A stretch of 47,747 nucleotides of DNA. Source: Methanotrichaceae archaeon. Lineage in GTDB: Archaea; Halobacteriota; Methanosarcinia; Methanotrichales; Methanotrichaceae. Positions within the stretch are counted from its first letter, which is position 1. The number at the start of each line of letters is the position of its first letter. The translations under genes were made by a program, and so were the position numbers. The stretch is taken from contig CAWDLW010000049.1 in assembly GCA_963803145.1 (NCBI GenBank), forward strand, positions 1-47,747, read 5' to 3'. Below the pieces are notes generated by a model. The model was not told the DNA's origin and searched no databases. It was given only the letters and a program-made list of their open reading frames with translations. Shown in pieces: positions 4,015 through 31,040 of the stretch.

Positions 4015-4190
4015 TGCGGCTGATGATCTCTTTTTTGTGCTCCATTTAGTTGCATTTTTCTTGTATCGATAAATAATGTGGTCTACTCTTTGAGTGAATG
4101 AGCTTTGCCTCTTCTGGCAATCCAATTTGTTATGATGCACTAGGGCTTCTGACCATAATTTATATTTCTTCCAACAACTCCTATAACTAT

Positions 4191-6290
4191 ATGAAAAATA
4201 TGAGAATATGTTATTCGCTGTTTCTAATATTATTTTTATTTGCAACAGCATCTGCCCAATATGTTGTCGAGACACCTGCAGGCAACATGAACGCAACGGC
4301 TCTTAAGGAATTGATAACAGAATCAGAAAGGAATTTAGAAGTATATCGTTTCACCCTTGCTCAAGACGAGCAAGTAGAAAGAATTAACCTTACGACAGGC
4401 AGTACGATAAACCAGGCCAGGCTCATTACCCTTGGATCAGGCGCCTTCAACCTTACCGCCAAGGCTACGAAAGTAATAACGGCTTTACTCTCCTATCCAG
4501 TCGGCCAGGAGGAAAATGCAATCTCCATGGCCAATGAGGTATATGTACTCAACAATACCATATACAGCAAGGTTAACGGCAATTGGACGGCAGTGAATCT
4601 GCCACTGCCTGAGAGCGTCTGGACAACACAGAATAGACTCAACCAATCTGCTGAGCTCGCAAACGCATCCGATATCAGGCTTCTCGGCACAGAGGTCATA
4701 GATGGCGAAGGCGTCTATGTTGTGGAGGTCATTCCTAAGATGGGTGCAATCTCCTCCCTGATCAGCAATCAGCTGGGACCGGGCTTTTCAATCTCTTCCA
4801 TAAATCTCAGTGCTCTCTTCAATAACACCCAGGTGAGATATATTATCTGGATCTCTATGGATAGCCACGTTCCTGTGGCTGAATATGTCCAGACAAACAT
4901 AACCATAAATTCTGGAGCGCTGGGCCTATCTGGCAGAGGAAACATAGTGAATCATATTGATTCCGTCACCACATTGGAGTTCAGAGGTTTCAATGAGTCC
5001 GTGAATATTGTGCTGCCTCAGCAGGCAATGCAGGCAGAGATGTTACCATTAACTGGCGCCCAGATATCACCATCAGGTTCTGCGATTTCCCAAGGAGCTT
5101 CGCCCCTAGATCCGCCATCTCCCAGCTATACCAACGCTTTGACGCCTGATATGCAGCAACAACTGTGGTTGGCGGAAGCATACGCATTCCTCAACGGAGG
5201 TTCCTACTCCTATAACAGCCCTATCTACGGTTCCCCTAATATGGCTTACTACGCAGGCTCCTATTACCCATACTATATTCCCTATTACTACCCGTACCCG
5301 ATGAACTATGCGCCATACACATTCCCGGCACAGGGATATATCACACCCACGCAGGGATATGCTACTACCACACCAGGGTATACAACACCTGCACAGGGAT
5401 ACGCTACTACCACATCGGGATACACCACACCTACACAAGGGTATACTACGCCTACACAAGGGTATACTACGCCTACACAAGGGTATACTACGCCTACACA
5501 AGGGTATACTACGCCTACACAAGGGTATACAACCTCTGTGCCGGAATATACCATGATGACTGCCGGTAATTCATCTATTGGCACTTACTTGACCGATGGC
5601 AAAGGCATGACCCTGTACCATCTGTTAAGCGATCAAGGAAGCTACACCAGCAGATGCACCGATGCCACATGTACGGGGATCTGGCCTCCGTTCTACGTGA
5701 GAAGCATAAACGTCCCAGTTAACTTGAACCCGGCCGATTTCAGCACAATAACGGTTAACGGGTACAAACAGTATCAACAGACCACTTATAAGGGCTGGCC
5801 TCTCTACTATTTCTATAGGGATGCTAGGCCGGGGGATATCTATGGCCAGGGCCTAAGCGATAGCTATGGGATTTGGTCTGTAGTGAATCCTGAGATCACC
5901 AACACATTTCCGACAAACTTCCAATATCAATCCGTCGGAGCTGCAGCGACTCAGTATCAATACCCTACGCAGCAACCATCTACAGTAACGATATCGCCTT
6001 CTCCGCCAGCCTATACAACACCATCTCTATATCCATCCGTTCCCACACCCAGACTGGTAACTACACCTGTATCCGGCAACGTGCCGGTGACCATCAGCTA
6101 TCCCGGATCAGGTCCTTTTGACGTATACTTAGATGGAAACTATATCGGCACAGGATCAGGTGGCAGTTTCAGTTTCAACGCACCAGGAGGCACTCACAAT
6201 GTGAGGGTTTGGGACGGCAGCTTCGACTATGAGCAATCATTACTGTTCCAGAACGGAGTGCCTAAGATAATTTATGTGCAGGCTGTGTAG
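4191..6290 (+). CDS. Secreted multidomain protein: LolA/LppX-like domain, Tyr/Pro-rich linker with TTPTQGY repeats, COG4315 Yx(FWY)xxD repeat domain, PEGA-like C-terminus
   Basis: Signal peptide from ATG 4191; YSKVNGNW and GTEVIDG..VYVV motifs; LTDGKGMTLY...C...WPP...QTTYKGWPLYYF..D; FDVYLDGNYIG. Confidence 0.85.
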   Translation: MKNMRICYSLFLILFLFATASAQYVVETPAGNMNATALKELITESERNLEVYRFTLAQDEQVERINLTTGSTINQARLITLGSGAFNLTAKATKVITALLSYPVGQEENAISMANEVYVLNNTIYSKVNGNWTAVNLPLPESVWTTQNRLNQSAELANASDIRLLGTEVIDGEGVYVVEVIPKMGAISSLISNQLGPGFSISSINLSALFNNTQVRYIIWISMDSHVPVAEYVQTNITINSGALGLSGRGNIVNHIDSVTTLEFRGFNESVNIVLPQQAMQAEMLPLTGAQISPSGSAISQGASPLDPPSPSYTNALTPDMQQQLWLAEAYAFLNGGSYSYNSPIYGSPNMAYYAGSYYPYYIPYYYPYPMNYAPYTFPAQGYITPTQGYATTTPGYTTPAQGYATTTSGYTTPTQGYTTPTQGYTTPTQGYTTPTQGYTTPTQGYTTSVPEYTMMTAGNSSIGTYLTDGKGMTLYHLLSDQGSYTSRCTDATCTGIWPPFYVRSINVPVNLNPADFSTITVNGYKQYQQTTYKGWPLYYFYRDARPGDIYGQGLSDSYGIWSVVNPEITNTFPTNFQYQSVGAAATQYQYPTQQPSTVTISPSPPAYTTPSLYPSVPTPRLVTTPVSGNVPVTISYPGSGPFDVYLDGNYIGTGSGGSFSFNAPGGTHNVRVWDGSFDYEQSLLFQNGVPKIIYVQAV
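5430..5530 (+). repeat. 21-bp coding tandem repeat (PTQGYTT)
   Basis: CCTACACAAGGGTATACTACG x4 plus a partial copy; degenerate copies extend upstream to ~5330. Confidence 0.95.
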
Positions 6291-6386
6291 CAGCGCCCAT
6301 TATCTGCTTTACAGCCCATTTTACTTTTTAGTTTACTTGTACTTGTTTATCTTCCTAGTATAGCATCGAATTCATTGGATTTCTTG

Positions 6387-9305
6387 CTAATACGGCATTA
6401 CTGCAAGGCCTGGGGCATCGAAGTCGCTTAGTACCAATGTATCTTTAACTGTAACTTCAACTCTAGAATTGGACACGCTCTCTAGTCCAACATCCATTGA
6501 GGCAGGTGCTAGTGTGAAAGCTATCTCTGCATCCATCTTCTTCGGGATACACTTATCTACTGTTAGCCAGACAGTATAGGAAACATTGCTGTCTTGCAAT
6601 AGATTATCGCCTTCCAATAGGTCATTAGAGCTTGCATCTTGCAGCTGGATTGGTGCAGAGGATTGAATTGACGATGCCTGTGCTGCCAGTATATTGCGTA
6701 ATGTACTTAGTTCAGGCTTAACCTTAACCTCGTAGCATTTCTGGCCGTCGATAGTCTCTGTGCCAATCATCTCGATATTTGAGCCGCTGATGAGATCTGC
6801 GATGCCCTTGAGCTTATTTCGCTCGTCAAATGATTTTGTTGGGTCGGATACCACAGACATGGTCCATTGGCCATCAAGTTTATTATACAATTTGTCATCG
6901 ATAAGAGTAGTCTCTATATCTTGTTCATCGATGATGTTGCCATAGCTATCCAGTTTCATCGAGCTGGTAGATTGTTTCGCACTTCTCTCTCTTAGATCGA
7001 TCAGACCTGTTTCATCTTTGGTGGTTATTTGTTCGTTTTCAGGGCATGGACCTACGAGTACAATGTTCATCTGAGCTTTTTCAGAATATCTATAGCAGCC
7101 TACGCTCTGAACAGAGGATAGCATCAATCTCTTGGTATTCTCTGCACAGTTGCTCTGTGGAGCAACACTGCACGGTGGACATACTTTGCTTTTGCTGCTC
7201 GGGCAGATAGCTCCGCAATTGCAGCTTGTGCCTGTTACACAACCGCTTCCTGTAGGACAAGCTGATTTTGTTATACAGACGCTACATGAAGGATACCGGG
7301 AATTTGTTATGCAATTGCCAAAAGTCGGGCAGGTTGAGCCTGTCGGACAATTGGAAGCTGACGGGCATGATGTGCCCGACATACAGCTTGTGCCAGTTGG
7401 GCAGGCTGTGCTGGTTATGCAGCCATTTTCAGTTGGAATGCTGGAGCCGGTTATTACTTGACAGCAGCCTGACGCTGTCGGACAGGAGGGACCGCTCGGG
7501 CAGATGCTGCTGGTTGTACAACCTGCGTCAGTCGGACAGGATGCGCCGGTTGTGCAGCTAGCTCCTGTCAGACATCCAGCTCCCGTAACACAGCCGGACC
7601 CTGTTGGGCAATCAGTGCTCGTCGGTGCTCCCGAACTAGTTATTACTTGACAGCAGCCTGATGCTGTCGGGCAGGAGGGGCCACTTGGGCAATCGCCGCT
7701 GGTTACGCAGTCCGCACTAGTCGGACAAGCCGAGTTCGTTACACAGCCACTACTTGAAGGGCAGACAGAATTAGTTGTGCAGCCTGCACTTGTCGGACAA
7801 TTTGCGCCGGAAGTGCAGTCAGCTCCTGTTAGACAGCCTGTGCCTGTCGGCGCTTCTGAACTAGTTATTACTTGACAGCAGCCTGATGCTGTCGGGCAGG
7901 AGGGGCCACTCGGACAGCTGCCGCCTGTTGCACAACTTGCTGCAGTCGGACATGCCGAATCGGTTGTACAGCCATTGCCAGTTGGGCAGCTCGAGCCAGT
8001 TGTACAGGTTGTTCCTGTTGGGCAGCTTACACCTGTTGCACAGCTACTCCCTGTGGTACAGCCAGAGCCTGTTGTGCAATCAGGGCCAGTTGGCGCATCC
8101 GAACTAGTTATTATTTGGCAGCAGCCTGATGCTGTCGGACATGTCGGGCCGCTTGGACAATCGCCGCTCGTTACGCAATCCGCACTAGTCGGACAAGCTG
8201 AATTTGTTATGCAGCCGTTACTTGAAGGGCAGACAGAATTAGTTGTGCAGCCTGCACTTGTCGGACAATTTGCGCCGGAAGTGCAGTCAGCTCCTGTTAG
8301 ACAGCCTGTGCCTGTCGGCGCTTCTGAACTAGTTATTACTTGACAACAACCTGACGCTGTCGGGCAGGAGGGGCCACTCGGACAGCTGCCGCCTGTTGCA
8401 CAACTTGCTGCGGTCGGGCATGCCGAATCGGTTGTACAGCCATTGCCAGTTGGGCAGCTCGAGCCGGTTGTACAGGTTGCTCCTGTTGGGCAGCTTGAAC
8501 CTGTCGGACAATCGGCTCCGCTTGGGCAACCGCTAGTCGTAGTGCATCCCGAACTGGTAGCACATTTGGAGCCGGTTGGGCAAAATGCAGCAGATACACA
8601 CTCAGTACAGCTTGGGCAAGAATTTCCCTGGCAGCTTCCTCCAGTGGGGCAACTACCACTGCTAGTTAGGCAGGTGCTTCCTGATGGACAAGTTGAGCTG
8701 GATGGACAATCTGATCCTGTAGGGCAGACGGACCCCGATGGACAGCCGATTCCTGTGGCACAGCCAGATCCTGTTGCACAAAGTGAACCTGTCGCGCATG
8801 CGATTCCTGTTGGAGAACCTGAACCAGTCACACAGCTGGATCCTGTTGGACAGTTTGTATTGGTTGGGCAGCTTGACTGAGTGGGAGATGTACAGCTAGT
8901 TGGGCATATGGCATTGTTGTTATATCCTTCGGCAGAGCTTGCCTCTTTGATAGTGCCCGCTTCTTTGACAGTGCTGCTTTCTTCCTGGATAGCATTTGGT
9001 TTTTCGATAGTGCTTGCTTCTTTAGGATTGCTTGCATCATTAATAGCGTTCGGTTCTTTGATGACATCCTGTTCTTTAATAGCACTCATTTCTTTAATAG
9101 AGCTCATTTCTTTTTCAGCGTTTGCATCGTTAAGTGCCATCGATTCTTTGATAGCTGCCGATTCTTCCTTAAAGCTAGAATCTTTGATAACGCCTGAATC
9201 CTTGGTGATGCCTGATCCATCGGTAACGTTCATTCCTTTGGCACTAGTAAAATTTAATGTAGTAATTATGATAACTAGTAGTAATAATATAGGCCATATC
9301 TTCAT
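6387..9305 (-). CDS. Secreted Cys-rich hexad-repeat protein with C-terminal LolA/LppX-like domain
   Basis: Signal peptide from ATG 9305; IKExxA hexads; ~590 aa of CxTxxx hexads; C-terminal LYNKLDGQW and GTETIDGQKCYEV motifs. Confidence 0.88.
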   Translation of the reverse strand: MKIWPILLLLVIIITTLNFTSAKGMNVTDGSGITKDSGVIKDSSFKEESAAIKESMALNDANAEKEMSSIKEMSAIKEQDVIKEPNAINDASNPKEASTIEKPNAIQEESSTVKEAGTIKEASSAEGYNNNAICPTSCTSPTQSSCPTNTNCPTGSSCVTGSGSPTGIACATGSLCATGSGCATGIGCPSGSVCPTGSDCPSSSTCPSGSTCLTSSGSCPTGGSCQGNSCPSCTECVSAAFCPTGSKCATSSGCTTTSGCPSGADCPTGSSCPTGATCTTGSSCPTGNGCTTDSACPTAASCATGGSCPSGPSCPTASGCCQVITSSEAPTGTGCLTGADCTSGANCPTSAGCTTNSVCPSSNGCITNSACPTSADCVTSGDCPSGPTCPTASGCCQIITSSDAPTGPDCTTGSGCTTGSSCATGVSCPTGTTCTTGSSCPTGNGCTTDSACPTAASCATGGSCPSGPSCPTASGCCQVITSSEAPTGTGCLTGADCTSGANCPTSAGCTTNSVCPSSSGCVTNSACPTSADCVTSGDCPSGPSCPTASGCCQVITSSGAPTSTDCPTGSGCVTGAGCLTGASCTTGASCPTDAGCTTSSICPSGPSCPTASGCCQVITGSSIPTENGCITSTACPTGTSCMSGTSCPSASNCPTGSTCPTFGNCITNSRYPSCSVCITKSACPTGSGCVTGTSCNCGAICPSSKSKVCPPCSVAPQSNCAENTKRLMLSSVQSVGCYRYSEKAQMNIVLVGPCPENEQITTKDETGLIDLRERSAKQSTSSMKLDSYGNIIDEQDIETTLIDDKLYNKLDGQWTMSVVSDPTKSFDERNKLKGIADLISGSNIEMIGTETIDGQKCYEVKVKPELSTLRNILAAQASSIQSSAPIQLQDASSNDLLEGDNLLQDSNVSYTVWLTVDKCIPKKMDAEIAFTLAPASMDVGLESVSNSRVEVTVKDTLVLSDFDAPGLAVMPY
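7633..8490 (-). repeat. 468-bp near-identical internal duplication within the Cys-rich gene (boundaries approximate)
   Basis: GAACTAGTTATTA at 7633, 7858, 8101 and 8326 (7633 to 8101 and 7858 to 8326 are both 468 bp). Confidence 0.9.
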
Positions 9306-9628
9306 AACCGCCCACCCTGGCAACTGCTCAATTTTATATAAACTACATATCCCTATTTTTTAATTAAGTTGCAGGAATTTTAAGTGCTTACGTTATGTCA
9401 TTAGAAGATATCCATATGGCGGATTCTTAGCTTTTAACGAAATAAATGATGGGGCGCTCTAAGTATTCTGTTGCACTATTATAGCCGATGATATTAGATA
9501 ATCATACTTCTCTTCGTAAACTAACTTTTAGAAATATAGGAATAATAACTATTTCTGGTTTTATTCAACGATTGCTGGTTTGATAAGATCATACCTTTTT
9601 GCCAAAATCGGAAGAAGGGGAAACGGTA

Positions 9629-10171
9629 TTATCTACGATATCCTTGCCCGTCATTTTCATGAATGCCTGGACTATGTGATTTCGCATCTCCAAAGACGTA
9701 CTGCCTAACGGCGTCGAACCCTTTAATGTTCAATGCTTTGCTCATGATCGCCTTGATTCGCGACATACCCTCCATGTTGAAATCGGCTACCCAGGGGCCA
9801 ACACAATTTTCGCCATAGAGTGCCGTAGCAAAGGACTCCGCCAAGCCCTCAATGATGATATATCGACCCACTGTGATGTTGACCGGATCCCAGTTCATGC
9901 CGGAGATATTATGATGTGCCTCATGAGCGAGAGCTGCCTGGAGCCGTGAGAGGTTATAATCAGTGACCTCGATGGTTTGTTCACAAAGACCGAGAGCATT
10001 TACTCGTTCAAACTTTCGTATTGACTCAATCGCCCTATCATCCAGCATCTCTGGCATTAGGAACGCCCAGCCCTTGAGCACGGCTAGCGCATCATAGCCT
10101 CCCGGCTGAGCCTTCATGGGGACACCGAAGACCTTGAACATGCCATCATATGGCCCCATTAGTTCCCCCAT
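9629..10171 (-). CDS. DUF2268-like putative Zn-dependent protease, probably truncated
   Basis: AHEAHH (HExxH) followed by EGLAE and GPW; the C-terminus drifts after YVFGD. Confidence 0.7.
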   Translation of the reverse strand: MGELMGPYDGMFKVFGVPMKAQPGGYDALAVLKGWAFLMPEMLDDRAIESIRKFERVNALGLCEQTIEVTDYNLSRLQAALAHEAHHNISGMNWDPVNITVGRYIIIEGLAESFATALYGENCVGPWVADFNMEGMSRIKAIMSKALNIKGFDAVRQYVFGDAKSHSPGIHENDGQGYRR

Positions 10172-14004: not shown

Positions 14005-14188
14005 CCTGAACTAGTAGTTGAAACCCTATATAATTTTGTTTATACTATTTTATAATTTGGGCTCTCACCACGATCGATGGATGCAGGGATGTGAAATCAA
14101 TCTGATGTACCAAGGAGCTTATCTTGCTATGACAACGTATAAATATAATAAAACTAATAGACATTTCGCTATGGAAGGTGATGCTTGT

Positions 14189-15364
14189 ATGAATATCAGC
14201 GGGAGCCTAAGCAAGGTTTTGCTTATAATGATTATTATTCAAACATCCAGCATTTGTATGGCCCTCAGTGATTGTCCATGTAACGCAGGTAATCATAACG
14301 TACCAAATACTAGCCCAACTACAAACGATCCGGCTATTAGTATTCAAAATATTTCCGGCATAGCTAAATTGGTAACCGAGAGCAACCATGAACTGCCCCC
14401 AGCCCACATGATAGCCAATGTTCCCTGGCATCAGCAGCTGAATGCATTGGAATGCGGTGAGGGTGCCCTTGAAACTGTATATGATTACTGGGGTACTGAT
14501 ATCGATCAAAAGCAAATTGCTGATGTGGCCAGGACTTCTTCAGCAGGAACCTGGACATATGATATGGTCAGAGCAGGCCAGTTTAGCTATATGAGTGCAG
14601 CTCAAGGGCGTTTTTATCCAGGCAATGTACCAATTGCCGGTTATCCTGCCCGGCCTCTAGGATATGCTGCCTTCTCGTATTCTGGGAATAATTTCTGGAT
14701 GAATGATCTTAAAGCGCTCATTGCCGCAGATATACCTGTTATAGTTCTGACAACATACAATCCAGATGGCACAGGCGGGGGCCACTATAAGACTATCATA
14801 GGCTATAACGATACTGAGAAGGCCATCTACTTCAGTGATCCCTGGGGGCGAGATCTGTTGCATAAAACGAATTTTACAGGCATCACACGCTGGACCTATA
14901 ATGAGTTTCAGAGCGGCTGGAATTACTCTGCAACAGGGGAGGGCCACCCTTACTTCGGTATGATATCCCTTCCATGGAGTGTTGGTGTAGGAACTCACGG
15001 CAGCCTCAATACAGGCAGCACAGCAATTATCACCGCAAATATAACCTATCCTTGTCCGTCACCCTTTAACCAATCTCAATTCCTAGCTAAGAGTTGTACA
15101 GCCGATATTACCTTACCTGAAGGCATGAGCCTTGCTTCCGGATCGACTAGTATTCCGCTGGGAAATATCAAGGCTGGATCAACCATCAAGACTAGCTGGA
15201 AGGTGAATATTGATAAGCCTGTGAGCGGAAAATCAGTCGCAGTAAAAGCCCAAGGCATAATATCTGGCCACGTGCCCGAAGCATATTGGACCGGAATGGG
15301 CATCGTCTATCCGCCCTACAATTATACGGATGCCATTGGAGGATATGGATCTATAGCGCTTTGA
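14189..15364 (+). CDS. Secreted C39-like cysteine peptidase with C-terminal Ig-like domain
   Basis: VPWHQQ....CG (Cys), GGHY (His), SDPWG (Asp); GGAAGGTGAT SD and signal peptide at ATG 14189. Confidence 0.85.
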   Translation: MNISGSLSKVLLIMIIIQTSSICMALSDCPCNAGNHNVPNTSPTTNDPAISIQNISGIAKLVTESNHELPPAHMIANVPWHQQLNALECGEGALETVYDYWGTDIDQKQIADVARTSSAGTWTYDMVRAGQFSYMSAAQGRFYPGNVPIAGYPARPLGYAAFSYSGNNFWMNDLKALIAADIPVIVLTTYNPDGTGGGHYKTIIGYNDTEKAIYFSDPWGRDLLHKTNFTGITRWTYNEFQSGWNYSATGEGHPYFGMISLPWSVGVGTHGSLNTGSTAIITANITYPCPSPFNQSQFLAKSCTADITLPEGMSLASGSTSIPLGNIKAGSTIKTSWKVNIDKPVSGKSVAVKAQGIISGHVPEAYWTGMGIVYPPYNYTDAIGGYGSIAL

Positions 15365-21761: not shown

Positions 21762-24700
21762 CTAAATGGCTCCTTCAACTATTTTGATTTCCTCCTCCGT
21801 CAGACCATACAGCCTGTAAACGATCTGATCAATCAGCGTATCCGTATCTTTGATCCGTCCCATGAGCGGCTGCAGCTTTCCAACAGACGCATCGAACTCC
21901 CGCCGCAGATCCTCCTGATTATCACGACCGGATGGATTGAAATCCTTCAGCTTTCGTTTGTTCTTCTTGAGGATAGCCAGCATCTCGTCAAACTGCCGCT
22001 TGTAGTAATCCTGAACTTTTGTTTTGGGCGTCAGGTCCTCGACCTTGGCCCCGATCTCCGTCTCAAGCCAGCTCAGGAAGCCCTTGATCTCCTGCTGCTT
22101 CTGCTTGTTCATCTCCAGCATCTGCTCGGCCAGGAAGGCCAGCAGGTCGTGGACAACATCGGCCCTCTCCCAGGCTGTGATGAAATTTCCTTCGGCATCC
22201 TTAGGGAGGCAGGCTTCGACGCTGGCCAGGATCTCCTCGAACTTCCCGGCTTGGTAAAGTGCCTTCAGTTCTGCAACCAGGCGGGCCCGCTCGGGCTCGG
22301 GGGTATTAGAATTGAAGTGAATTGCAGGCAAACTGGCAATCTCTCTTGTGCTAACATGATTATTTGTGCTAGTTAACCTGAACCTCCATTCCAATAACTG
22401 CGAATTTAGCAAGGCGAGCAGCGTTAATTCCTTTTCGCCTTCCAGTATAGGAAAATATGAGATGCTGTCAAAACAATATGATGGTGACGGCAATCTAGCA
22501 AATATCAAACGACGCCAATCATCTAATGCTGCATTGCGCTGATAACCTATACGCTGCGCTCTTGTATGTGCAACTTTTTCCCCGTGGACTTGTTGCGCGT
22601 ATCTTTGAACATCGATGTATTTGTCGGTTCCTTGTTTTGCCTCGTCTAGAAACTCATAGCGTTGAATATTTCCTCCTCTAAACACTTTTGGGCCAACAAC
22701 AGGATCTGTGCTCAATAGCTGCGCTAGACCTGTCTCATTAATTTCTCCCTGATAAGTCTTAATCGAATCCCCAATCCGACAACGTCTTTCTGAAGCAGAA
22801 TACAATTTCTTTATTAAATTAGCAGCGAGATCTGATGCCAGTAATGGAATAGGCAGATATTCTTCATCAAGCATTTTCGGTATAGATTCCTCACATAAAT
22901 ATCGACCGCTTATTTCATTCAGGTAACGCCCCGGATGGTTTACAACCACGAAAGAATTGATCTCTTTGCGGGAGTTCTTAAATAATACAACACATGTTGG
23001 CAATTTGGCTTCGGGAAATACCCTTCTTGTAGGGTCATCCTTTTGAGGAAATGCATCAATACTTTTTATACTAAAATTATTTATTAAGTATTTTCTTAAA
23101 TTAGCTGTTTGTTGATCTGCAAGAATCGACATCGGGATTATAAGTCCAATCGTGGCTTCAGGGCAAACAAGAGAACCTGATTTAGCGACCATTAGGCGAA
23201 AGAGATCTATTTTCCTTCCTTGAGCCGGAAATAGATCTTTATTTGATTCAATAAAGGTCATAAAGCTGGAAAGGTCTTCTTGTCTTTCTTTTTCGGCCAA
23301 AACATCATATGGTGGGTTACCTATCACTGCATCCCAGCCAGCGGTTTGTTTTACCGTACCCTCTTCAAAGAATATCTCCGGAAACTCTAACTCCCAATGG
23401 AAGAATGCTCTCTGATCTGCCATTTCCTGAGCTTGCTTGAACCACTGCCCCCACGTCTTACGCTTCCACTCAGCCTCGTCTCCTGCCACGCCCCAGAACA
23501 TGTCGTGGTAGACCATCTCTGCGTCTTTGTTCTTCGTCGGTTCAATCTGGTTTCCAAAATACAGGCTTGTGTGAACGTTGGCAATTGCCTTGGCCTTGGT
23601 GTACTGCGGCAGCCCTTTGAACTCCTCGAAGACCTTCTCCTTCCGTTTGATGTCGGAAAGAGTATCTTCTTCGATTCCCTCCAGCTCTCTGATCTTGCCG
23701 ATTAGGTTCTTGATGAAAAGAGGCGATACGAAAGACGGCAATGATGTCTGGTTCTCATCTCTGCTCTTTCCGCCCGGATAGTTCTTCAGGTCCGAAAGCC
23801 TTGCGCCGATGAGACTGTTGCCTTTCTTCAGCCGGTGATCAAGGAAGCTGAGAGGCTTGTCCTTGCTGATGGTGTCTAACCAGAGGGACACTTTGGCCAG
23901 CTCCACTGCCATATCGTTCAGGTCCACGCCATAAACGCAATGCGAGACCGCCTCCCTCTTGGCCCAATCGTTTGTGAACTGGCCGTCATCCTCAGCTAGT
24001 CCAGCCTCGATATCATGTTGAGCTGCAGCCATCAGCTTTACCGCAAGGAACTCAACTGCGCCAACCAGGAAATGGCCGCTTCCCATGGCGGGATCGAGGA
24101 CCTTAACCGATAGAGTGGCGTTGACATAGCTCGATTTGCTCCCTTCAGCAGCGCTCCATCTTTCCTCAACTACGGGACCGATGGTGTTTGCAACGATGTA
24201 ATTCACGATATAATCAGGAGTGTAATAAGATCCCGTGGCCTTCCGCTCGCCTTTGTCCGTAGTCAGGTAAAGCTCGCCCTTCCTCGCCCGATCGAACTCT
24301 TCAAACTCCTCGAAAGCCTTCTTCTTGCTCTTGGCCTGGTTGTACTCCTCAAGCGTTGCCCATCGGCGCTCTTTTTCGCTGCCAGCGACGACCAAATCGC
24401 TTTCGGCTACCATTACCTTGTATTCTAAAAGCCCTTCATAGATGCTGCCCAGGTGCCTGATCTCCAGTGTAGAGTAGTCTACAAATCCTATCCCGCCCTC
24501 GCCAACTCCGCTTCTCGATAATAGGTCAACGGCATCCGCCAGAAAACTGTCTCCAATAGTCCATTTATCGAGCTGGCGATTCTCCTCCGGCTCGAAAAGA
24601 CCTCCGTTGTAAGCAGGAATGTGGATTATATGATCGATCTTCAGCTCTTGGCTTCCTTTATCGATCAAACGGAATAGACTCTTGAGGCTGCCCCAAAGCG

Positions 24701-25703
24701 ATGTGCTTGTCGGCATGTAGTAATGCTGTGCCGGGCCGTCCTTCTTTGAAGCGACCTCTTTCTTGATCTTGTCGAAGCTGTGAGAATCTCGGTAGCTTTC
24801 GTTTCTCAGGTCCAGAAGGCCCTTGCCCTCAGCGTAGAGAAGGAATAGCAGACGATAGAGAAGAATCATGGTGTTCTTCTGAACAAGCTCTCGAGTCTTC
24901 GGGTCGTTGTAGTCAAGCTGGTTCTCAGGCCAGGAGAAGAATCCTTCAGCTATCTTCTTCATCGCCCGGTAGACATTCTCCTTTAAGTTGTCCCCTATCT
25001 CTTTGGCATAGTCGGCTGAGCCTTTCAAAACCGTCTCAACGAAGACCTCGCCTTCCTCATTGGGCAGAAAAGCCTCACGCCGGAAGAAATAGTAATAATA
25101 CTTGAACCCCTCAAGGTCGTTATTCTTCAACAAAGATACTAGATCAACCTCGTAATAAACATCAAGCGGCTTATCTTTGCGGTAAAGACGCCAATGTCGC
25201 CCGTTTGAGAGGATTCCCCAGTTTACTCCGGTCTCATTGAGATACAACCACATCTGAAAGCTGGGATTTCTTCTTTTATCCTGCCTGTCCTTGCCGAATC
25301 GATCAAGCTCTACATCCCACCGCTTCACCTCGCCAATGGCAAGAGCACCAGTAAAGAAGGACTTTGAATCTGCGGACTTATGTGCGTCATCGATAGTCTC
25401 CTGAGCGGCAAAAAAGGCGTAATCGGGTGAATCCGACCCACTTGACTCTTGGACTTCATAGCAAGGTAATATTTTCTTGAATATTATGGTGTAAAATCGT
25501 TCTTCCAGCTGAGACTCCTTTAGACCATCGAAAAAGGCGCTCTGGGACGTGTAGACTCTCTTAATTGAATTGAAAGCCTCTACATGCTCTTTTTTCTTCC
25601 ATTCGGGCGAGCTTTGAATTAGGTTCAATAGATAGTGATTGGAGAATAGATTGCGGTTGTTAAATACGAGATTCTCAGGCAACACTTGGCTTTCACCTTC
25701 CAT
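21762..25703 (-). CDS. Type IIG restriction-modification enzyme (fused endonuclease, N6-adenine MTase and TRD; Eco57I-like)
   Basis: PDY...GEVK nuclease motif, GILSNG..WRLY, GSYYTP, VLDPAMGSGHFL (motif I), FHWELEFPEIF, IGNPPY (motif IV). Confidence 0.93.
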   Translation of the reverse strand: MEGESQVLPENLVFNNRNLFSNHYLLNLIQSSPEWKKKEHVEAFNSIKRVYTSQSAFFDGLKESQLEERFYTIIFKKILPCYEVQESSGSDSPDYAFFAAQETIDDAHKSADSKSFFTGALAIGEVKRWDVELDRFGKDRQDKRRNPSFQMWLYLNETGVNWGILSNGRHWRLYRKDKPLDVYYEVDLVSLLKNNDLEGFKYYYYFFRREAFLPNEEGEVFVETVLKGSADYAKEIGDNLKENVYRAMKKIAEGFFSWPENQLDYNDPKTRELVQKNTMILLYRLLFLLYAEGKGLLDLRNESYRDSHSFDKIKKEVASKKDGPAQHYYMPTSTSLWGSLKSLFRLIDKGSQELKIDHIIHIPAYNGGLFEPEENRQLDKWTIGDSFLADAVDLLSRSGVGEGGIGFVDYSTLEIRHLGSIYEGLLEYKVMVAESDLVVAGSEKERRWATLEEYNQAKSKKKAFEEFEEFDRARKGELYLTTDKGERKATGSYYTPDYIVNYIVANTIGPVVEERWSAAEGSKSSYVNATLSVKVLDPAMGSGHFLVGAVEFLAVKLMAAAQHDIEAGLAEDDGQFTNDWAKREAVSHCVYGVDLNDMAVELAKVSLWLDTISKDKPLSFLDHRLKKGNSLIGARLSDLKNYPGGKSRDENQTSLPSFVSPLFIKNLIGKIRELEGIEEDTLSDIKRKEKVFEEFKGLPQYTKAKAIANVHTSLYFGNQIEPTKNKDAEMVYHDMFWGVAGDEAEWKRKTWGQWFKQAQEMADQRAFFHWELEFPEIFFEEGTVKQTAGWDAVIGNPPYDVLAEKERQEDLSSFMTFIESNKDLFPAQGRKIDLFRLMVAKSGSLVCPEATIGLIIPMSILADQQTANLRKYLINNFSIKSIDAFPQKDDPTRRVFPEAKLPTCVVLFKNSRKEINSFVVVNHPGRYLNEISGRYLCEESIPKMLDEEYLPIPLLASDLAANLIKKLYSASERRCRIGDSIKTYQGEINETGLAQLLSTDPVVGPKVFRGGNIQRYEFLDEAKQGTDKYIDVQRYAQQVHGEKVAHTRAQRIGYQRNAALDDWRRLIFARLPSPSYCFDSISYFPILEGEKELTLLALLNSQLLEWRFRLTSTNNHVSTREIASLPAIHFNSNTPEPERARLVAELKALYQAGKFEEILASVEACLPKDAEGNFITAWERADVVHDLLAFLAEQMLEMNKQKQQEIKGFLSWLETEIGAKVEDLTPKTKVQDYYKRQFDEMLAILKKNKRKLKDFNPSGRDNQEDLRREFDASVGKLQPLMGRIKDTDTLIDQIVYRLYGLTEEEIKIVEGAI

Positions 25704-25880
25704 GGTCTTCCACTCGTTATGCTAGATCTTCAATCACTCATGGTATTGCTGGGATTAACCCTCCGAGCCATCATCCACTGCTTACACGAAAAAGCTTACG
25801 GAGGAAATGTGAAGAGAGCCATACCAAAATAACTATTACTACTTTAGCCATATGTAAGATGGCGATAATTTGAAGAGGTA

Positions 25881-26216
25881 GTGACGATGACTATCCCAGA
25901 TTTCCAGAGCCTCATGCTCCCGATACTGAAGTTTGCTGGCGACAGCAAAGAACATAGCCAAGGTGAACTCAACGAGGCCATGGCTGGGCAGTTCAAGCTT
26001 ACTGAGGCTGAGAGAAAAGAGTTTTTGCCAAGCGGCAGGCAGCCAAGGTTTGAGAATAGAGTTGCTTGGTCGCGCGTCTATCTGAAGAAAGCAGGACTCC
26101 TTGAGAGTACTGGCCGAGGTAGGTTCCACATAACAAAGCAGGGAATGGAGGTCTTGAGGGATAGTCCTCTCAGCATTAATACCAAATTCTTGATGCCTTC
26201 TAAGGCCCTGCCCTGA
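25881..26216 (+). pseudogene. mrr: Truncated Mrr restriction protein (N-terminal winged-helix domain only)
   Basis: IPDFQSLMLPIL...LPSG...FENRVAWSRVYLKKAGLL...RG...IT..G; the catalytic domain is missing. Confidence 0.85.
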
Positions 26217-26241
26217 ATATCCCTTAAGTTTTCCTATGTCC

Positions 26242-26371
26242 AGTATCATCCTCTCCTAGAGTGCAAATCTTTCGTAAAGGTCCCCGCCGGAGGCAGGGTC
26301 AGGGGACCGCCCGGCCTTGAGGGCAGCTCAGATAGCTCTCGCGGGCGCCGCAACGCCTCGCGGTCACCCCC
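26242..26371 (+). repeat. GC-rich structured dispersed element, copy 1
   Basis: 26242-26352 matches 30112-30222 with 4 mismatches in 111 bp; multiple stems. Confidence 0.9.
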
Positions 26372-26520
26372 AAAAGAATTGTTAGTAGAATTGATGAGGG
26401 AATCACTTAGTAATTCTGTCTACGGGTAATCATGAGCTGGAAGCTGTGAGAATAAACATTCGATCATATTACTGGTAAGTAATTCTGAAAGTCACTCTAA
26501 AATCAGTGTGCAATGACTTA

Positions 26521-26586
26521 ATTTATGTGGGTGACGGGATTCGAACCCGCGAACCTCTACAGGACAGGGCCCTCAACCCTGCGCCT
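26521..26586 (-). repeat. att site: copy of tRNA-Leu 3' part
   Basis: 66 bp matching 36136-36201 with 2 mismatches. Confidence 0.93.
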
Positions 26587-26725
26587 ACCTGCTTTCCTTC
26601 CAGAAACCCCATTATTCCATTGAAAGATACTGATTAGATCGTATCATTTATCTCTTCGGGCAATAAAGTTTGAGCAATGTTAAATCTTATAGGTACATCA
26701 ATAGTCAAGCTTCTTATCCATCCGA

Positions 26726-28072
26726 ATGCCTATGACTAGAGGGGTCCCCTTGGCAGAGCCTCACAAAAAGTCCTGCATAAAGCCTTATCCTCGGCCTGAT
26801 AAAAGAGAGGACATAGACCTCCTTGAAGGGCTCGACGACGAGTACGATCTGATAGTTATCGGAGCGGGACCCTCCGGACTTTTCTGTGCCATTAATTCCA
26901 GCCAAAAGGGAAAGAAGACCCTAATCCTGGAAAAAAAGAATTCGCCAGGGCATAAACTGCTAATCTCAGGCCAAGGGCACTGCAATATAACAAACGAGGC
27001 AGAGATTCAGACGTTCCTCGAACACTATGGAGAACACGGCCGATTTTTGCGCCCGGCCCTCCTAGGGTTCACAAACCATGATCTAATCCGATTTTTCGAA
27101 GATCGAGGGCTGGCTATGATCCGGGAAAAAAGAGGCAAGATCTTTCCGGAAACACTACGATCCAGGAATGTGCTAGATGTTATGATCAGGGAATGCGAAG
27201 CCAAGAATATTCGCATATGCTACAATCAGGTTGTGAGATCGATAACCAAAACAGAAGACAAATTCAACGTGCACTGCATAAATCGTACATATCTATCCTA
27301 CAACCTTGTCATAGCTACGGGTGGATGCTCATATCCCGCAACGGGCTCAAATGGTGATGGATATAGATTTGCCAAGGATTTTGGTCACAGTATCGCTGAG
27401 GTCGGTCCAGCACTGACGCCTGTTATCATAAAGAATTATCCTTTCAGAGATTTGGCCGGGCTCTCCTTCCCGGAAATGAATATATCTCTCTATCGCCAAA
27501 AGAAGATAAGGGACCAGCGAGGAGATATTTTATTCACTCATCAGGGACTTTCAGGACCAGGAATTCTCGACCTATCAAGGTATATTAGAGCGGGAGATAC
27601 TTTGAGGCTCTCCTTTATGCCCAGGGAAAAAAAGGGCGAACTGGAGAAATGGTTGCAGAATAGAGCTCGATTGGATGGAGGAGTTGAACTAAGATCAATA
27701 CTATCAAGCCTGCCCAACTCAGTGCCTCTTTCCCCTAAATTGATAAAGAAAATCCTGGAGACCTCTGGGATTGCCATAGACTTGAGCTTAGCTCACCTGA
27801 CCCGAGAGATGCGGACTCACCTTATCGACAATTTGACCGGCTTACCACTAGTCGTCTCTAAACTAGGCGGATTTGATATCTCCATGGTCACCAGGGGTGG
27901 AGTTGAATTGAATCAAGTCAACCCTAAGACGATGGAATCGAGGCTTGTCAAGGGATTATATCTGGTTGGCGAAGTGCTAGACGTGGATGGAGACTCTGGT
28001 GGCTATAATCTACAAGCTGCATTTTCAACAGGCATGCTATCCGCCAGAAGCATTAAAAATAATTGGGCATGA
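26726..28072 (+). CDS. HI0933/BaiN-family flavoprotein (NAD(P)/FAD-dependent oxidoreductase)
   Basis: IGAGPSG, KLLISGQGHCNITN, ATGG.SYP.TGSNGDGY, LFTH.GLSGP, GEVLDVDGDSGGYNLQ; true start may lie downstream. Confidence 0.93.
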   Translation: MPMTRGVPLAEPHKKSCIKPYPRPDKREDIDLLEGLDDEYDLIVIGAGPSGLFCAINSSQKGKKTLILEKKNSPGHKLLISGQGHCNITNEAEIQTFLEHYGEHGRFLRPALLGFTNHDLIRFFEDRGLAMIREKRGKIFPETLRSRNVLDVMIRECEAKNIRICYNQVVRSITKTEDKFNVHCINRTYLSYNLVIATGGCSYPATGSNGDGYRFAKDFGHSIAEVGPALTPVIIKNYPFRDLAGLSFPEMNISLYRQKKIRDQRGDILFTHQGLSGPGILDLSRYIRAGDTLRLSFMPREKKGELEKWLQNRARLDGGVELRSILSSLPNSVPLSPKLIKKILETSGIAIDLSLAHLTREMRTHLIDNLTGLPLVVSKLGGFDISMVTRGGVELNQVNPKTMESRLVKGLYLVGEVLDVDGDSGGYNLQAAFSTGMLSARSIKNNWA

Positions 28073-28304
28073 ATTTAATAATTTAAAATTAGACTGCAAT
28101 AAATTTATAAATCATTAGTTTCTATCTATTTGTTGGATATATTACCTCGCAAGGCCGTAATCGTGGGACTCCGAGACCTATCTTTTATAGCGGTTACGGC
28201 CTGGCTAAATTGCTTACTTATCCCTATCCCCAATCATACCCTACCCCATTTAGTTCTTTGACATTTTAACCAATCCTTCGAAGAAATTGATGATCAATTT
28301 TGAT

Positions 28305-28934
28305 CTACTTCTTATGTAGAAATAATTCCACCTCTGCAGGAATATGGGGCACCTTGTAAAAATATGGCATAGGCGCGAAATAACTTTTATCCAAAATCTC
28401 AAACCTATTATTTTTTATCAATTTTATCAAATTATCCTCATGAGGAATTGAAATATGCGATTTATCTTTATCGAGGAAGCCAAATATTTTTCTCGGCCAA
28501 TCTTCGATAGGCAATGAAATTATAAGATATCCATCATCTTTAACCGATGAAGAGATTTTCTGAAAGTTCTTATCTAAGTTATGTGTATGCTCAAGGACAT
28601 CTAGGGCTGTTACGACATCGAAATATTTTCTGGGGTAGGGAAAGGCTGTATCAAGATCTATAACCTCAAGCTGTGATTTGGGTACAATTTCTTTTGCTCT
28701 CTCGATCGCATATGCAGATACATCACATCCATATGTTTCATCAAAAAAAGGCGCCACTTCATGTATTAAAAATCCAAAAGCACAACCCACATCTAGGTAT
28801 CTTCCCCCTCTATTATACTTTTCGATAAATCTTATTACTTCTTTAAAATATATCTTAGAGTTAATTTTATCATAACACACATAATTTGACTTTATTTTCC
28901 CATAAAAGTAATCTTTATCGAAGAATTCATCCAT
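28305..28934 (-). CDS. Class I SAM-dependent methyltransferase
   Basis: YLDVGCAFG, GCDVS, FDVVTALDVLEH; AT-rich. Confidence 0.9.
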   Translation of the reverse strand: MDEFFDKDYFYGKIKSNYVCYDKINSKIYFKEVIRFIEKYNRGGRYLDVGCAFGFLIHEVAPFFDETYGCDVSAYAIERAKEIVPKSQLEVIDLDTAFPYPRKYFDVVTALDVLEHTHNLDKNFQKISSSVKDDGYLIISLPIEDWPRKIFGFLDKDKSHISIPHEDNLIKLIKNNRFEILDKSYFAPMPYFYKVPHIPAEVELFLHKK

Positions 28935-29148
28935 AATTGTTATACTCTTCCGTTTTTAACCTACCATTAATTTTCTTCATTATATAGTTTATGCTTATGA
29001 TAGAAATTACCTATTTTATCGAAGTAATATGAGAAGAGATAGTCATTCCATTATAATTAGTACAACAACTTTAAATATTTTTAAGTATAATTAGAATAGT
29101 TTAATCGAAGGGATACCCTCCGCCAAATTTCCCTTAGGAGATTGAAGT

Positions 29149-29451
29149 ATGACAAAATTCCATATTGAATGGAAACAATCCTCAAAGATACCAGACGATC
29201 CCGTTAAGCTAGCAAAGCTATACTTGTCACATATGGAACAGATTAAGGCAGATCTGAAATCGGGTAAGTTGAATGATTTTAGACAGTATAGTAATGGGTC
29301 TAGCGGATACCTTCTCATAGAAGGAACCGAAAACGATGTATTTACCACTCTGATGAAATACCTCCCATATGTTGAATTCGATGTAAAGCCAATTGTTAAT
29401 GTGGATCAGACTATAGAAGCAATTAATAAAGCTCTATCGATGGCAAAGTAG
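29149..29451 (+). CDS. Small hypothetical protein (DUF3303/ferredoxin-like fold candidate)
   Basis: GGAG SD; 100 aa; SGYLLIEG...PYVEFDVKP pattern. Confidence 0.7.
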   Translation: MTKFHIEWKQSSKIPDDPVKLAKLYLSHMEQIKADLKSGKLNDFRQYSNGSSGYLLIEGTENDVFTTLMKYLPYVEFDVKPIVNVDQTIEAINKALSMAK

Positions 29452-29739
29452 GACTGCTCGTTCAGTAGGCGATTCTATTTTTTAATCCTAGATTATTTCG
29501 AAAATTGCCACCAGCCTTTCTTTTTGGCCTCTTCCGTTTGCTGGCTGAGATCCTTCATTTGGGGGCATTTTACAGCATTTATCATATCTTGGACTCTTCA
29601 TTTAATAGCTCCAAGGTCTTTGAAGATATGCCTTTTAACATCAGATCAGAAGCTAGATCCTTCATGCTAATCCTCTGTAAGACGGATTCAATCTCAAGTG
29701 CCCTTCTTGCCTTTGGACTTAGCTCCACCCTGTTCGAAC

Positions 29740-29940
29740 CATCGTCTCGTACTCATTGAGATAAACCTCCTCACATTTCAGAGTCTTGATGAAGCTTTCT
29801 GCAAATGCATTATCGTATGGATTGCCCTTTCTGGACATGCTGATCTTGATGTTATGCTTTCAAAGACAATCGATATAATCTTTTGAGGCGTATTGGACAC
29901 CCTGATCCGAGTGATGAATAAGTCCCCGCATAGATTCCGT
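29740..29940 (-). mobile_element. IS3-family transposase (rve core) fragment
   Basis: Manual translation: LIHHSDQGVQYASKDYIDCL*KHNIKISMSRKGNPYDNAFAESFIKTLKCEEVY. Confidence 0.9.
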
Positions 29941-30111
29941 CCATAGCCCGGGCCTTTAAGATGTCCTAAATTATCGTGTTTGTTGTTTGGATTTAGCAAA
30001 TTAGGGTTTTTCCTCCATTCATCTCAACCTTGTAAACACTGAGACTATCAAGCCACAGCAAAGGTTTCAATTCCTTGGCTTCTTCAAAGGCTCTGCCTTG
30101 CTTATCCCGCG

Positions 30112-30222
30112 AGTATCAGCCGCTCCTAGAGTGCAAATCTTTCGTAAAGGTCCCCGCCGGAGGCAGGGTCAGGGGGCCGCCCGGCCTTGAGGGCAGCTCA
30201 GGTAGCTCTCGCGGGCGCCGCA
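30112..30222 (+). repeat. GC-rich structured dispersed element, copy 2
   Basis: Direct repeat of 26242-26352, offset 3870 bp. Confidence 0.9.
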
Positions 30223-30427
30223 GCGGCGGGACTCCAGCATGAAAGCCGTTTAATAGGCTCGCCCTCATGTGCTCATTCCCCAAATTTAGGCATTCCATTG
30301 AAACTTGATGAGAAGACCATACGAAGTTTATGCATCTGAAAAGATTATTAGTAGTGGATAAGGGATTGCAGTATATCTATTACAAGCTAAGGAGATGCCC
30401 TTAGGGATGCATAGGCTGCAACCTTTT

Positions 30428-30683
30428 CTAGATATTATCCATTGGATCAATGACCTCTATGAAATCTATCCTCTTGAAAGCTCGGTCATGAGTCATTAGC
30501 TTCTTAATTTCTAGCTCCTCCATTGATGCCAGGATAGTAGCATCTCGACCACCAATACCCGTTTGCGAATATTTCGCTAGATATTCAATCGATTTTTGGG
30601 CATGATACTGGTCGAAATCAACGATTTTCATAGGATATGAAAGGAATATATTCATCTTTCTCTTTCCTTCCTACGAAGATCAG
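30428..30683 (-). pseudogene. vapC: VapC/PIN toxin with internal deletion
   Basis: C-terminal GIGGRDATILAS...LMTHDRAF; an IFV start remnant beside the antitoxin stop is out of frame. Confidence 0.75.
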
Positions 30684-30901
30684 GCCTCCCATATTTTCTT
30701 AACCTCTAGAGGATCAATCTTTGAGCTCTCAATGCATCCTCTCAATTCTTTTTTGAATTGAGCTTTGGCGATAATAGGCTTAATCACCATGTTCCCGTCT
30801 TCGAACCTTACTTCCACCTCGTCTCCATCCTTTAGACCTGCCTTCTGTATAATGTTTTTAGGAATCGAAAGTTTATCCCCCTCAAGTCTAGCCCTGATCA
30901 T
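30680..30901 (-). CDS. AbrB/MazE/SpoVT-type antitoxin
   Basis: LSIPKNI....GLKDGDEVEVRFEDGNMVIKP. Confidence 0.9.
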   Translation of the reverse strand: MIRARLEGDKLSIPKNIIQKAGLKDGDEVEVRFEDGNMVIKPIIAKAQFKKELRGCIESSKIDPLEVKKIWEA

Positions 30902-30988
30902 TCATCATCACCAATTAGCTTCATGTAACTAAACTTAAATAAATCTCTCTAGGAATTCCAAGAATCAGCTTTCACAAAAGGGTTTTAA

Positions 30989-31040
30989 TGCGGGGGACAG
31001 GATTCGAACCCGCGAACCTCTACAGGACAGGGCACTCAAC
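30989..31040 (-). repeat. att site: copy of tRNA-Leu 3' half
   Basis: 52 bp matching 36141-36192 with 2 mismatches, ~110 bp upstream of the integrase. Confidence 0.93.

Follow-up and report, generated by a model that had tools for sequence, protein, structure and literature searches.

The locus and its gene

The window analysed here is the whole of a 47,747-nt stretch of DNA from a Methanotrichaceae archaeon (contig CAWDLW010000049.1, GenBank assembly GCA_963803145.1). Its minus strand carries a gene for a secreted protein with a central region of six-residue units, or hexads, each of which opens with a Cys. This region is preceded by a signal peptide and a charged N-terminal region, and is followed by a C-terminal globular domain. 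The features of the gene are as follows, all of them on the minus strand.

6387..9305, minus: whole gene, 972 aa from the ATG at 9305, stop codon at 6387-6389; signal peptide, I-K-E hexads, Cys hexads and LolA-like domain
9333..9342 (9342-9333), minus: putative TATA-box-like element TTTATATAAA, ~33 nt upstream of the ATG at 9305, read from the sequence
9240..9305, minus: predicted Sec-type signal peptide MKIWPILLLLVIIITTLNFTSA, small-x-small cleavage site, no lipobox Cys, read from the translation
8907..9233, minus: acidic Lys-rich N-terminal region (~110 aa), six-periodic [I/V]-K-E-x-x-x
7146..8906, minus: Cys-hexad region, residues 134-720 of the 972-aa form, 587 aa, ~98 hexads
7422..8348, minus: five 15-aa punctuations CC-Q-[VI]-I-T-[SG]-S-x-x-P-T-x-x-x, found by regular expression on the translation, at 8304-8348, 8079-8123, 7836-7880, 7611-7655 and 7422-7466
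7590..8504, minus: recent tandem duplication of a 468-nt (156-aa) unit, 2.0 copies, 91% identity, with an older 225/243-nt period beneath
6390..7145, minus: C-terminal globular domain, 252 aa, of the LolA / LppX_LprAFG / DUF6612 kind

According to the list of open reading frames (ORFs) and the translation, the minus-strand frame spans 6387..9323 and would encode 978 aa if begun at TTG. The TTTATATAAA box at 9342-9333 is inferred to be a promoter element. The TTG at 9323 lies only ~10-15 nt downstream of this box, too close to be the start, and the ATG at 9305 is therefore taken as the likely start because the position of the box suits it. A scan for promoter and terminator consensus sequences returned sites no more numerous than in shuffles. 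The signal peptides of the paralogs share the same layout, with cleavage sites of the forms ..INA/EE, ..ALA/VD and ..AFA/ED.

The frame is a real coding gene under purifying selection. Measured against its ortholog in G001, a genome of the same genus, dN/dS is 0.25 in the N-terminal part, 0.18 in the Cys region and 0.17 in the C-terminal domain, and the Cys region is thus constrained like a globular domain. The comparison of the Cys region covers 511 codons at a dS of 1.18, with 83 of the 86 aligned Cys kept. Plus-strand ORFs of 97-145 aa within 7132-8880 (such as 7975-8343 and 8443-8880), rich in V, G, Q, P and L, mirror the composition of the repeat and were rejected as genes. Horizontal transfer, as judged from GC content, was likewise rejected. 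The GC of the gene is 0.50 compared with 0.454 for the genome, the raised value being due to the amino-acid make-up, and its GC3 is 0.41 compared with 0.50 +/- 0.08 in long ORFs.

The N-terminal region also has a period of six. There are 10 pairs of I/V/L/M/F at lag 6, 7 at lag 12 and 0-5 at the other lags from 2 to 14. Nine [IV][KQE][EKD] motifs are spaced by 12, 18, 6, 6, 18, 6, 7 and 6 residues. In this region (8907-9233), Ile or Val occupies the phase in which Cys comes later in the chain. The N-terminal regions of relatives carry other charged repeats, with periods 6, 10 and 14 (L071, L074, L073).

The Cys-hexad array

The 587 residues of the Cys region comprise 111 Ser, 103 Thr, 97 Cys (16.5%), 80 Gly, 59 Pro and 46 Ala, with two Phe, one Tyr and neither His nor Trp. 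Ser, Thr, Pro and Gly together make up 60%. Among the 101 Cys of the whole protein there are 100 successive gaps, of which 72 are of six residues and the remainder of 1 (five gaps), 14 (five), 3 (four), 8 (three) and others. Shuffling the 587 residues 2000 times gave 6.5 +/- 2.4 gaps of six, with a maximum of 16. The 72 strict hexads have P39, T13, A7, V6, L3, I3 and M1 at position 2, T56 and S16 at position 3, G40, S12, A9, N5 and D3 at position 4, and S33 and A17 at position 5, followed by a variable position 6. The consensus in this protein is C-[P/T/A/V/I/L]-[T/S]-[G/S/A]-[S/A]-x. Cys is flanked mainly by S/G/D on one side and by P on the opposite one, with S...P as the most frequent pair (15 times). 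[ST]-C-[ST] occurs six times and T-C-T twice among the 101 Cys. There are five CC, four CxxC and one CxC (10 in all), without dense clusters of the metallothionein kind.

An earlier, sequence-only reading of the window had described an archaeal secreted protein with a solenoid of ~590 residues and ~100 hexads of the form C-[PTAVIL]-[TS]-x-x-x, a Cys at every sixth residue, no His, very few aromatic residues and only sporadic TCT. Its description agrees with these counts throughout, and its motif holds in all the strict hexads except the one with Met at position 2.

Within modules, Pro alternates with T/I/V/A at position 2, as in LTPTPIPVPP and TTAPTPTPAPP. Identity at position 2 is found in 0.45, 0.35 and 0.38 of pairs at lags 2, 4 and 6, and in 0.25, 0.21 and 0.21 at the odd lags. 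This alternation points to a 12-residue unit. The punctuations (CC-Q-V/I-I-T-S-S-x-A-P-T-G-x-x) divide the array into blocks of 8-11 hexads and are retained in the orthologs and in the paralog on contig C15 of the source genome.

Logan contigs of public sequencing runs match 6000-7662 and 8419-9514 at ~99% identity, with short pieces over 7789-8286. None of them bridges the internal 468-nt duplication, and the exact module count rests on this assembly alone because the contigs break there. The runs with matching contigs are labelled sediment or freshwater sediment metagenome (two studies), labels which say nothing on temperature. None of the runs listed is of RNA.

Distribution and members of the family

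A scan of all ORFs of the 4.13-Mb source genome found eight hexad genes of this type, the window gene being the largest. Six of the eight consist of a signal peptide and hexads only, while the window gene and the C15 copy end in a LolA-like domain. The C15 copy is the syntenic one, lying near the genes for methionyl-tRNA synthetase, an ABC ATPase, RPA and RadA in four genomes of three genera. The window gene is its paralog and has an ortholog in G001.

Relatives of the Cys region occur in 9 of 105 Methanotrichaceae genomes, from 4 of 16 genera, the source genome included. Among 400 other genomes of the phylum, 12 of them from Methanotrichaceae, there was one strong match (G183, from another family, E 3e-51) and one weak match with internal stops. 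A scan of JGI metagenomes with one alignment (A1) gave 22 loci, one of which contains an incomplete ORF (at least 1135 aa, 139 Cys) with the C-terminal domain of the window protein; the same kind of scan with the C15 paralog gave no match.

The pattern is shared by the family. In 900 hexads from 28 ORFs, position 1 is Cys, position 2 is P in 47% and then T/A/I/V/L, position 3 is T in 82% and S in 15% (T/S 97%), and position 4 is G in 60% and S in 15%, with G/S/N/A/T/D accounting for 95%. Position 5 is S in 46% and A in 18%, and position 6 is variable. The strict periodicity and the residues at positions 3 and 4 indicate a fixed pattern and not mere composition. The register is maintained over hundreds of residues and across genera. 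The number of repeats varies among orthologs and paralogs, with counts of gaps of six from 35 to 113 in the LolA-fused forms.

No Pfam match at E <= 10 was found for the Cys region and four paralogs, and no NCBIfam match for the region. None of nine family proteins was present in an exact look-up in a collection of 15 billion proteins. A word-indexed protein search with the Cys region scored 0 of 8000 candidates and one with the paralog L003 returned three matches only, while the ESM Atlas gave no usable match to L003. The best matches in the representative library are pieces of the C-terminal domain 254-257 aa long, which is what breaks of assemblies within the repeat would produce. A further 57 representative matches fall within the Cys region, and 53 of them have six as their commonest Cys spacing. 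Eighteen representative matches were compared with Pfam. Three matched Hexapep, five DUF7107 and/or Dickkopf_N, and one each NosD, guanylate cyclase and an ephrin-receptor-like family; two matches to the C-terminal domain belonged to DUF6612, and five matched no family. Literature searches found no paper on archaeal Cys-hexad repeats. The CPTG-hexad family is rare, has no precedent in the databases searched and goes together with a particular gene cassette.

Several other sequences with related features were seen. A metagenome contig (L085, 5860-6753) encodes an unrelated-looking membrane protein with seven perfect C-P-T-G-S-N hexads in mid-chain, and the motif thus turns up outside the archaeal family as well. 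In the small secreted proteins of L083-L089, hexads and poly-Thr tracts occur together. Two ORFs of a different type, Cys-rich and apparently secreted, are present in the source genome at G000:C26:10944-12605 (554 aa, 94 Cys) and G000:C20:10226-11239 (338 aa, 53 Cys). An ORF on contig C23 (83260-83916) has E-C-L-G-L-W hexads and is probably a spurious frame.

Domain fusions and the C-terminal domain

The hexads serve as a module in several architectures. In P0052 a membrane anchor is followed by 13 hexads and a NosD beta-helix domain. In P0150 a C1A protease with CARDB leads through a PT linker to C-terminal hexads, and in L080 a Peptidase_C92 domain is joined to hexads by a linker. L077 has Lys-rich hexads, then a helical segment and a C-terminal membrane anchor with a basic tail. 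Hexads followed by a LolA-like domain are found in the window protein and seven other ORFs.

The C-terminal domain matched Pfam LppX_LprAFG at E 2.6e-4 and 21.3 bits, below the cut-off of 24. Among 27 aligned relatives, 10 match DUF6612 and two match LppX_LprAFG, and the nearest ESM Atlas clusters are DUF6612 / LppX with a score of 0.93. The best hit of the domain profile in the PDB was 4z48, at only E 0.07. LolA/LppX-like domains are known to bind lipids or other hydrophobic ligands. Unlike the LolA, LppX_LprAFG and DUF6612 proteins, the domain of the window protein hangs on a 587-aa Cys region.

The domain also exists alone. About 90 of the 147 representative matches are proteins of ~300 aa that align to residues 720-977, and this stand-alone form was found in 23 of 24 sampled genomes of the family compared with none of 16 genomes from two other families of the class. 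A domain tree was built from 35 rows, comprising the eight fused proteins, 26 of the 147 representative matches and the related domain of a neighbouring gene described below. All the fused copies and four short fragments form one clade (support 100/98), and the fusion of hexads to the LolA-like domain therefore probably arose once. Literature searches on LolA-like proteins in archaea and on GIFT domains gave general background only.

A four-gene membrane cassette

A cassette of four genes is common to the source genome and G183, a member of another family, at 47-59% identity. Its positions are as follows.

G000:C20:145706-152276 (L061 9707-16196): four-gene cassette in the source genome
G183:C57 (L070 4522-10787): four-gene cassette in G183

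Gene 1 is a hexad gene. Gene 2 encodes 276 aa with a signal peptide and a C-terminal anchor, and the products of genes 3 and 4 are polytopic membrane proteins (697 and 699 aa) with ectodomains of the GIFT/GldG/DUF4350 kind. The GIFT domain of the cassette matches IFT52 (E 6e-6). In a passage of PMC7226087, GIFT domains are proposed to bind sugars.

The cassette follows the hexads in its distribution. High-identity orthologs of the 697-aa gene occur in eight of the nine hexad-positive genomes of the family and in none of the 96 hexad-negative ones, where the best paralogs have 26-31% identity. In the phylum sample they were found only in G183, the sole genome there with a strong hexad match. 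Altogether ~490 genomes were searched and the cassette was present in nine, all of them hexad-positive; G002 has a weak hexad match only and no cassette. The orthologs of the 697-aa gene lie no more than 4 kb from a hexad gene in six of the eight family genomes and in G183, but not in two genomes of genus g15. Genes for thioredoxin-like, DsbD/CcdA-type and exosortase-like proteins come after the cassette in G183.

Comparison with antifreeze proteins and other repeat proteins

The resemblance to the antifreeze proteins (AFPs) of beetles, proposed by the sequence-only reading, can be measured, but it is borderline and composition drives it. A profile built from 12 paralogs with hexads only found two sequences in the PDB at E <= 10, 1EZG and BclA. 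1EZG, the Tenebrio AFP, is the only PDB structure below E 0.01 with the family profile (E 0.007, 18.3 bits, bias 55.6), and the alignment covers its whole 84-aa chain with Cys in register. A phmmer search of the PDB with the Cys region alone gave only a gamma-carbonic-anhydrase-like left-handed beta-helix chain at E 0.12, with no AFP at E <= 10.

Structure papers of 2000 on the Tenebrio protein (TmAFP) reportedly describe 12 residues per coil, with Cys, Ser and Ala turned inward. The insect AFP fold is a right-handed beta-helix in which a disulfide spans every coil. According to passages of PMC4046741, insect AFPs have Cys at least every sixth residue and 15-19% Cys, and the 12/13-residue beetle consensus is T-C-T-x-S-x-x-C-x-x-A-x, in which Thr flanks Cys and forms an ice-binding T-x-T ladder. 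The window protein is like the Tenebrio and Dendroides AFPs (1EZG, 1L1I) in having Cys at every sixth residue and ~16% Cys. A small residue stands three places after Cys in both (S or A in TmAFP; G, S or A in the hexad family), and both are rich in T/S/G/A/N without aromatic residues, with a 12-residue super-period inside modules. The beetle consensus and the Thr ladder are missing. In their place, hexads of C-P-T-G-S-x alternate with C-[TAVIL]-T-x-S-x, with T/S invariant at position 3 and Pro at every other position 2. The region is also 587 aa long compared with 84, has CC linkers between its blocks, and belongs to an archaeal protein in which a LolA-like domain is joined to it. The hexad family most likely came to resemble the beetle proteins by convergence. 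As an account of the sequence pattern the antifreeze analogy is fair, but not as one of the likely function.

Bacterial proteins of the DUF7107 / Dickkopf_N type (P0029, P0096, P0071) also have long C-x5-C runs and are secreted or membrane-anchored, but their hexads are often C-[ST]-x-G-x-x, without P-T-G. An hhalign comparison with a set of these proteins gave a probability of 99.4% over 73 columns, driven by the shared period, and the Pfam DUF7107 model had no match in the archaeal hexad family (best E 0.97). The left-handed beta-helix of Hexapep (PF00132) has the same six-residue period, and P0053, P0083 and P0117 carry inward Cys in the form C-x-[LI]-G-x-x. However, T/S stands in the window hexads where Hexapep has its aliphatic core residue. 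This fold was rejected, as there was no Pfam Hexapep match at E <= 10 and hhalign against Cys-bearing Hexapep proteins aligned one column. Collagen-like surface proteins (BclA, Scl, Lcl) share the P-T-G triplets and a place in surface stalks. Their matches are weak, namely E 0.078 for BclA and sub-threshold NCBIfam matches for L053. The collagen triple helix is excluded because Gly is not at every third residue; it stands only at position 4 (60%), with Cys at position 1.

A proposed role as a stalk

The preferred explanation, with a probability put at roughly 0.45, is that the array forms a Cys-braced solenoid rod that lacks a core and acts as a stiff stalk in a Sec-secreted protein of the cell envelope. 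The Cys hexads would fold as a thin beta-solenoid without a hydrophobic core, in which the Cys at position 1 and the small residue at position 4 point inward and Cys pairs brace each turn, as in the beetle antifreeze fold. At the five CC linkers the rod would be interrupted, which gives about six blocks. By arithmetic, the rod would be ~22-23 nm long at 12 residues per turn and ~16 nm at 18. As a mechanical stalk or spacer it would hold the C-terminal LolA/LppX-like domain off the point of attachment, and the protein may work in an envelope system with three membrane proteins, including those with GIFT/GldG-like ectodomains. O-glycosylation of the rod is a reasonable guess, based on the invariant T/S at position 3 and on the proposal that GIFT domains bind sugars. 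Among the options offered by the sequence-only reading, that of a structural envelope protein is the one favoured by the evidence.

Several points weigh against the stalk. Its fold has been read from sequence alone, and the match to 1EZG is borderline, with a large composition bias (55.6). The 12-residue super-period does not hold across the family, where identity at position 2 is 0.19, 0.32, 0.26 and 0.29 at lags 1, 2, 3 and 4, and L029, L053 and L035 peak at lag 3. A pure stalk role also leaves unexplained the six paralogs out of eight that consist only of hexads and lack a head domain. An odd number of Cys is found in 11 of 19 complete family proteins, and such chains must have one Cys or more that is free or bonded to a second molecule. 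In the 99%-complete genome neither DsbB nor VKOR was found that might supply the oxidant for ~50 disulfides. The counts of co-occurrence with the cassette overstate the support because related genomes are not independent, and they amount to a pattern, not a statistic.

The source genome has four DsbD_TM (DsbD/CcdA-type) loci, one with a redoxin domain. DsbD-type proteins belong to the reducing or isomerising branch of Dsb systems. The redoxin (AhpC/TSA-like)-DsbD/CcdA fusion is 462 aa long and lies at G000:C20:106706-110011 (L059 442-1830). Thioether chemistry of the kind found in ribosomally synthesised and post-translationally modified peptides was considered and rejected; the radical SAM/SPASM gene found 4.4 kb away from one paralog is not adjacent to it, and the hexad proteins have Sec signals. 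The sequence-only reading had called such a disulfide load surprising in a strict anaerobe. Passages of PMC10593813 and PMC11576556 deal with sheathed methanogens grown with sulfide and cysteine and propose that disulfides join the sheath rings as structural links, and extracellular disulfides in such organisms are thus not without precedent. The surprise is weakened to that extent, although the source genome shows only DsbD/CcdA-type proteins and neither DsbB nor VKOR.

Alternative explanations

The same disulfides might instead run between molecules. The array would then be a cross-linking matrix or wall anchor, in which hexad proteins are joined to each other or to sheath and wall proteins as covalent envelope or biofilm material, and the hexads are the part that fixes head domains to the wall. 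High-sulfur keratin-associated proteins offer a comparison. This explanation is plausible, if unlikely, and partly overlaps the stalk, which it does not exclude. It would account for the odd Cys counts and for the six paralogs with hexads only, and it suits P0150 and L080, where the hexads stand C-terminal behind a PT linker in the usual wall-binding position. The thioredoxin-like and DsbD-type genes after the cassette in G183 and the proposed sheath-ring disulfides (passages of PMC10593813 and PMC11576556) also agree with it. However, a family present in only 9 of 105 Methanotrichaceae genomes is not a core part of the sheath, and the strict register with its conserved T/S and small positions favours a defined fold over a random mesh. 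It is decidedly unlikely that the Cys are reduced in sulfidic sediment and make up a thiolate-rich surface for Ni, Co, Zn, Cu, Fe or Fe/Ni sulfide minerals, serving in scavenging, detoxification or attachment. Such a binder would fit the 16.5% Cys, the Cys counts without bias to even numbers, the four reducing-branch DsbD-type loci with no DsbB/VKOR found, and those paralogs with His-rich flanks or many CxxC (16 CxxC in L006; five and seven His in two ORFs of L007). Against this, the window protein has 10 closely spaced Cys motifs among 101 Cys and no His in the Cys region, and C-x5-C is not known as a chelating spacing. Hexads that occur as a short module beside enzymes or anchors fit a structural part better, and a scan of 106 ORFs neighbouring family members found no recurrent gene for a metal transporter or metallochaperone.

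There is a slim chance that the array has no fixed fold and is a flexible, O-glycosylated, mucin-like linker, with Cys for occasional cross-links. The 60% content of S, T, P and G, the invariant T/S at position 3, the poly-Thr tracts of the small relatives in L083-L089 and the GIFT domains of the cassette, proposed sugar binders in a passage of PMC7226087, all speak for such a linker. It is hard to reconcile with the retention of 97% of the Cys, with a register kept over hundreds of residues and across genera, or with a dN/dS equal to that of the globular domain; an exact six-residue phase is unusual in disordered linkers. An activity towards ice, gas hydrate or ice nucleation, working as in the beetle AFPs, had been put forward by the sequence-only reading and is highly improbable. 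The Cys content lies inside the range quoted for insect AFPs in PMC4046741, no PDB sequence matches the family profile better than TmAFP, and a 12-residue model would give one face with T/A/V/I/L at position 2. The ice-binding motif itself is all but missing from the window protein, with T-C-T at two of 101 Cys, [ST]-C-[ST] at six, and S/G/D and P as the usual flanks. Positions 5 and 6, on the surface, are variable and differ in charge between proteins, L077 being Lys-rich and the window protein acidic. Hexads are also fused to peptidase, NosD-like and LolA-like domains, occur as short modules beside unrelated heads or a membrane anchor, and come from runs whose labels (sediment, freshwater sediment) give no sign of a cold habitat.

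A bolder reading, for which there is only a small chance, would make the array an archaeal, convergent counterpart of the beetle antifreeze fold with ~50 turns, in a strict anaerobe in which no DsbB/VKOR was found. It would be either the longest disulfide ladder yet seen, made by an unknown oxidising route, or a regular thiolate surface of ~100 reduced thiols that binds metals or iron/nickel sulfide minerals or passes electrons at the cell surface. Either of these would place it in a dedicated envelope system of four genes, as the secreted component.

Significance

The hexad proteins are a large, strictly periodic and conserved repeat family without a Pfam or NCBIfam model. If the Cys-braced solenoid is true, the architecture of the beetle AFPs would have arisen independently in archaea for a mechanical purpose. 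It would also provide a natural rigid rod with a length set by the number of repeats, useful in protein engineering. The biochemical question is whether, and by what route, ~50 disulfides per chain could form outside the cell of a methanogen living in reduced sediment when DsbB and VKOR were not found. The Methanotrichaceae are acetate-using methanogens and major producers of methane. The close association between hexads and a three-gene membrane cassette suggests that some members of this family have an envelope system not described before.

Neighbouring genes and other features of the window

The gene next to the hexad gene is convergent with it.

4098..6290, plus: convergent neighbour, 730-aa secreted protein with an N-terminal LolA-like domain homologous to the C-terminal domain of the window protein (BLASTP 5e-16)

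This neighbour also has a Tyr/Pro-rich stretch and two Lipoprotein_15 repeats (Pfam). A perfect tandem repeat of 21 nt x 4.8 at 5430-5530 encodes T-P-T-Q-G-Y-T. The gene pair is kept in G001, where a convergent gene for a 649-aa counterpart, also with Lipoprotein_15 repeats, adjoins the ortholog.

The window carries genes for archaeal ribosomal proteins and RNA polymerase subunit D. A variable stretch at 21762-35427 includes an Eco57I/MmeI-type restriction-methylase fusion of 1313 aa (21762-25703), a phage-type integrase (31173-32012) and a NosD-like protein (32861-34423). A block of low GC, 0.31-0.38 over 32-36 kb and 0.33-0.38 at 28-30 kb, includes the NosD-like protein, and the stretch looks like an integrated element. 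A 180-aa ORF on the minus strand (9629-10171) covers positions 56-159 of the 195 in the DUF2268 Zn-protease profile and may be truncated. On the plus strand, 14018-15364 encodes a 448-aa Peptidase_C39-like protein.

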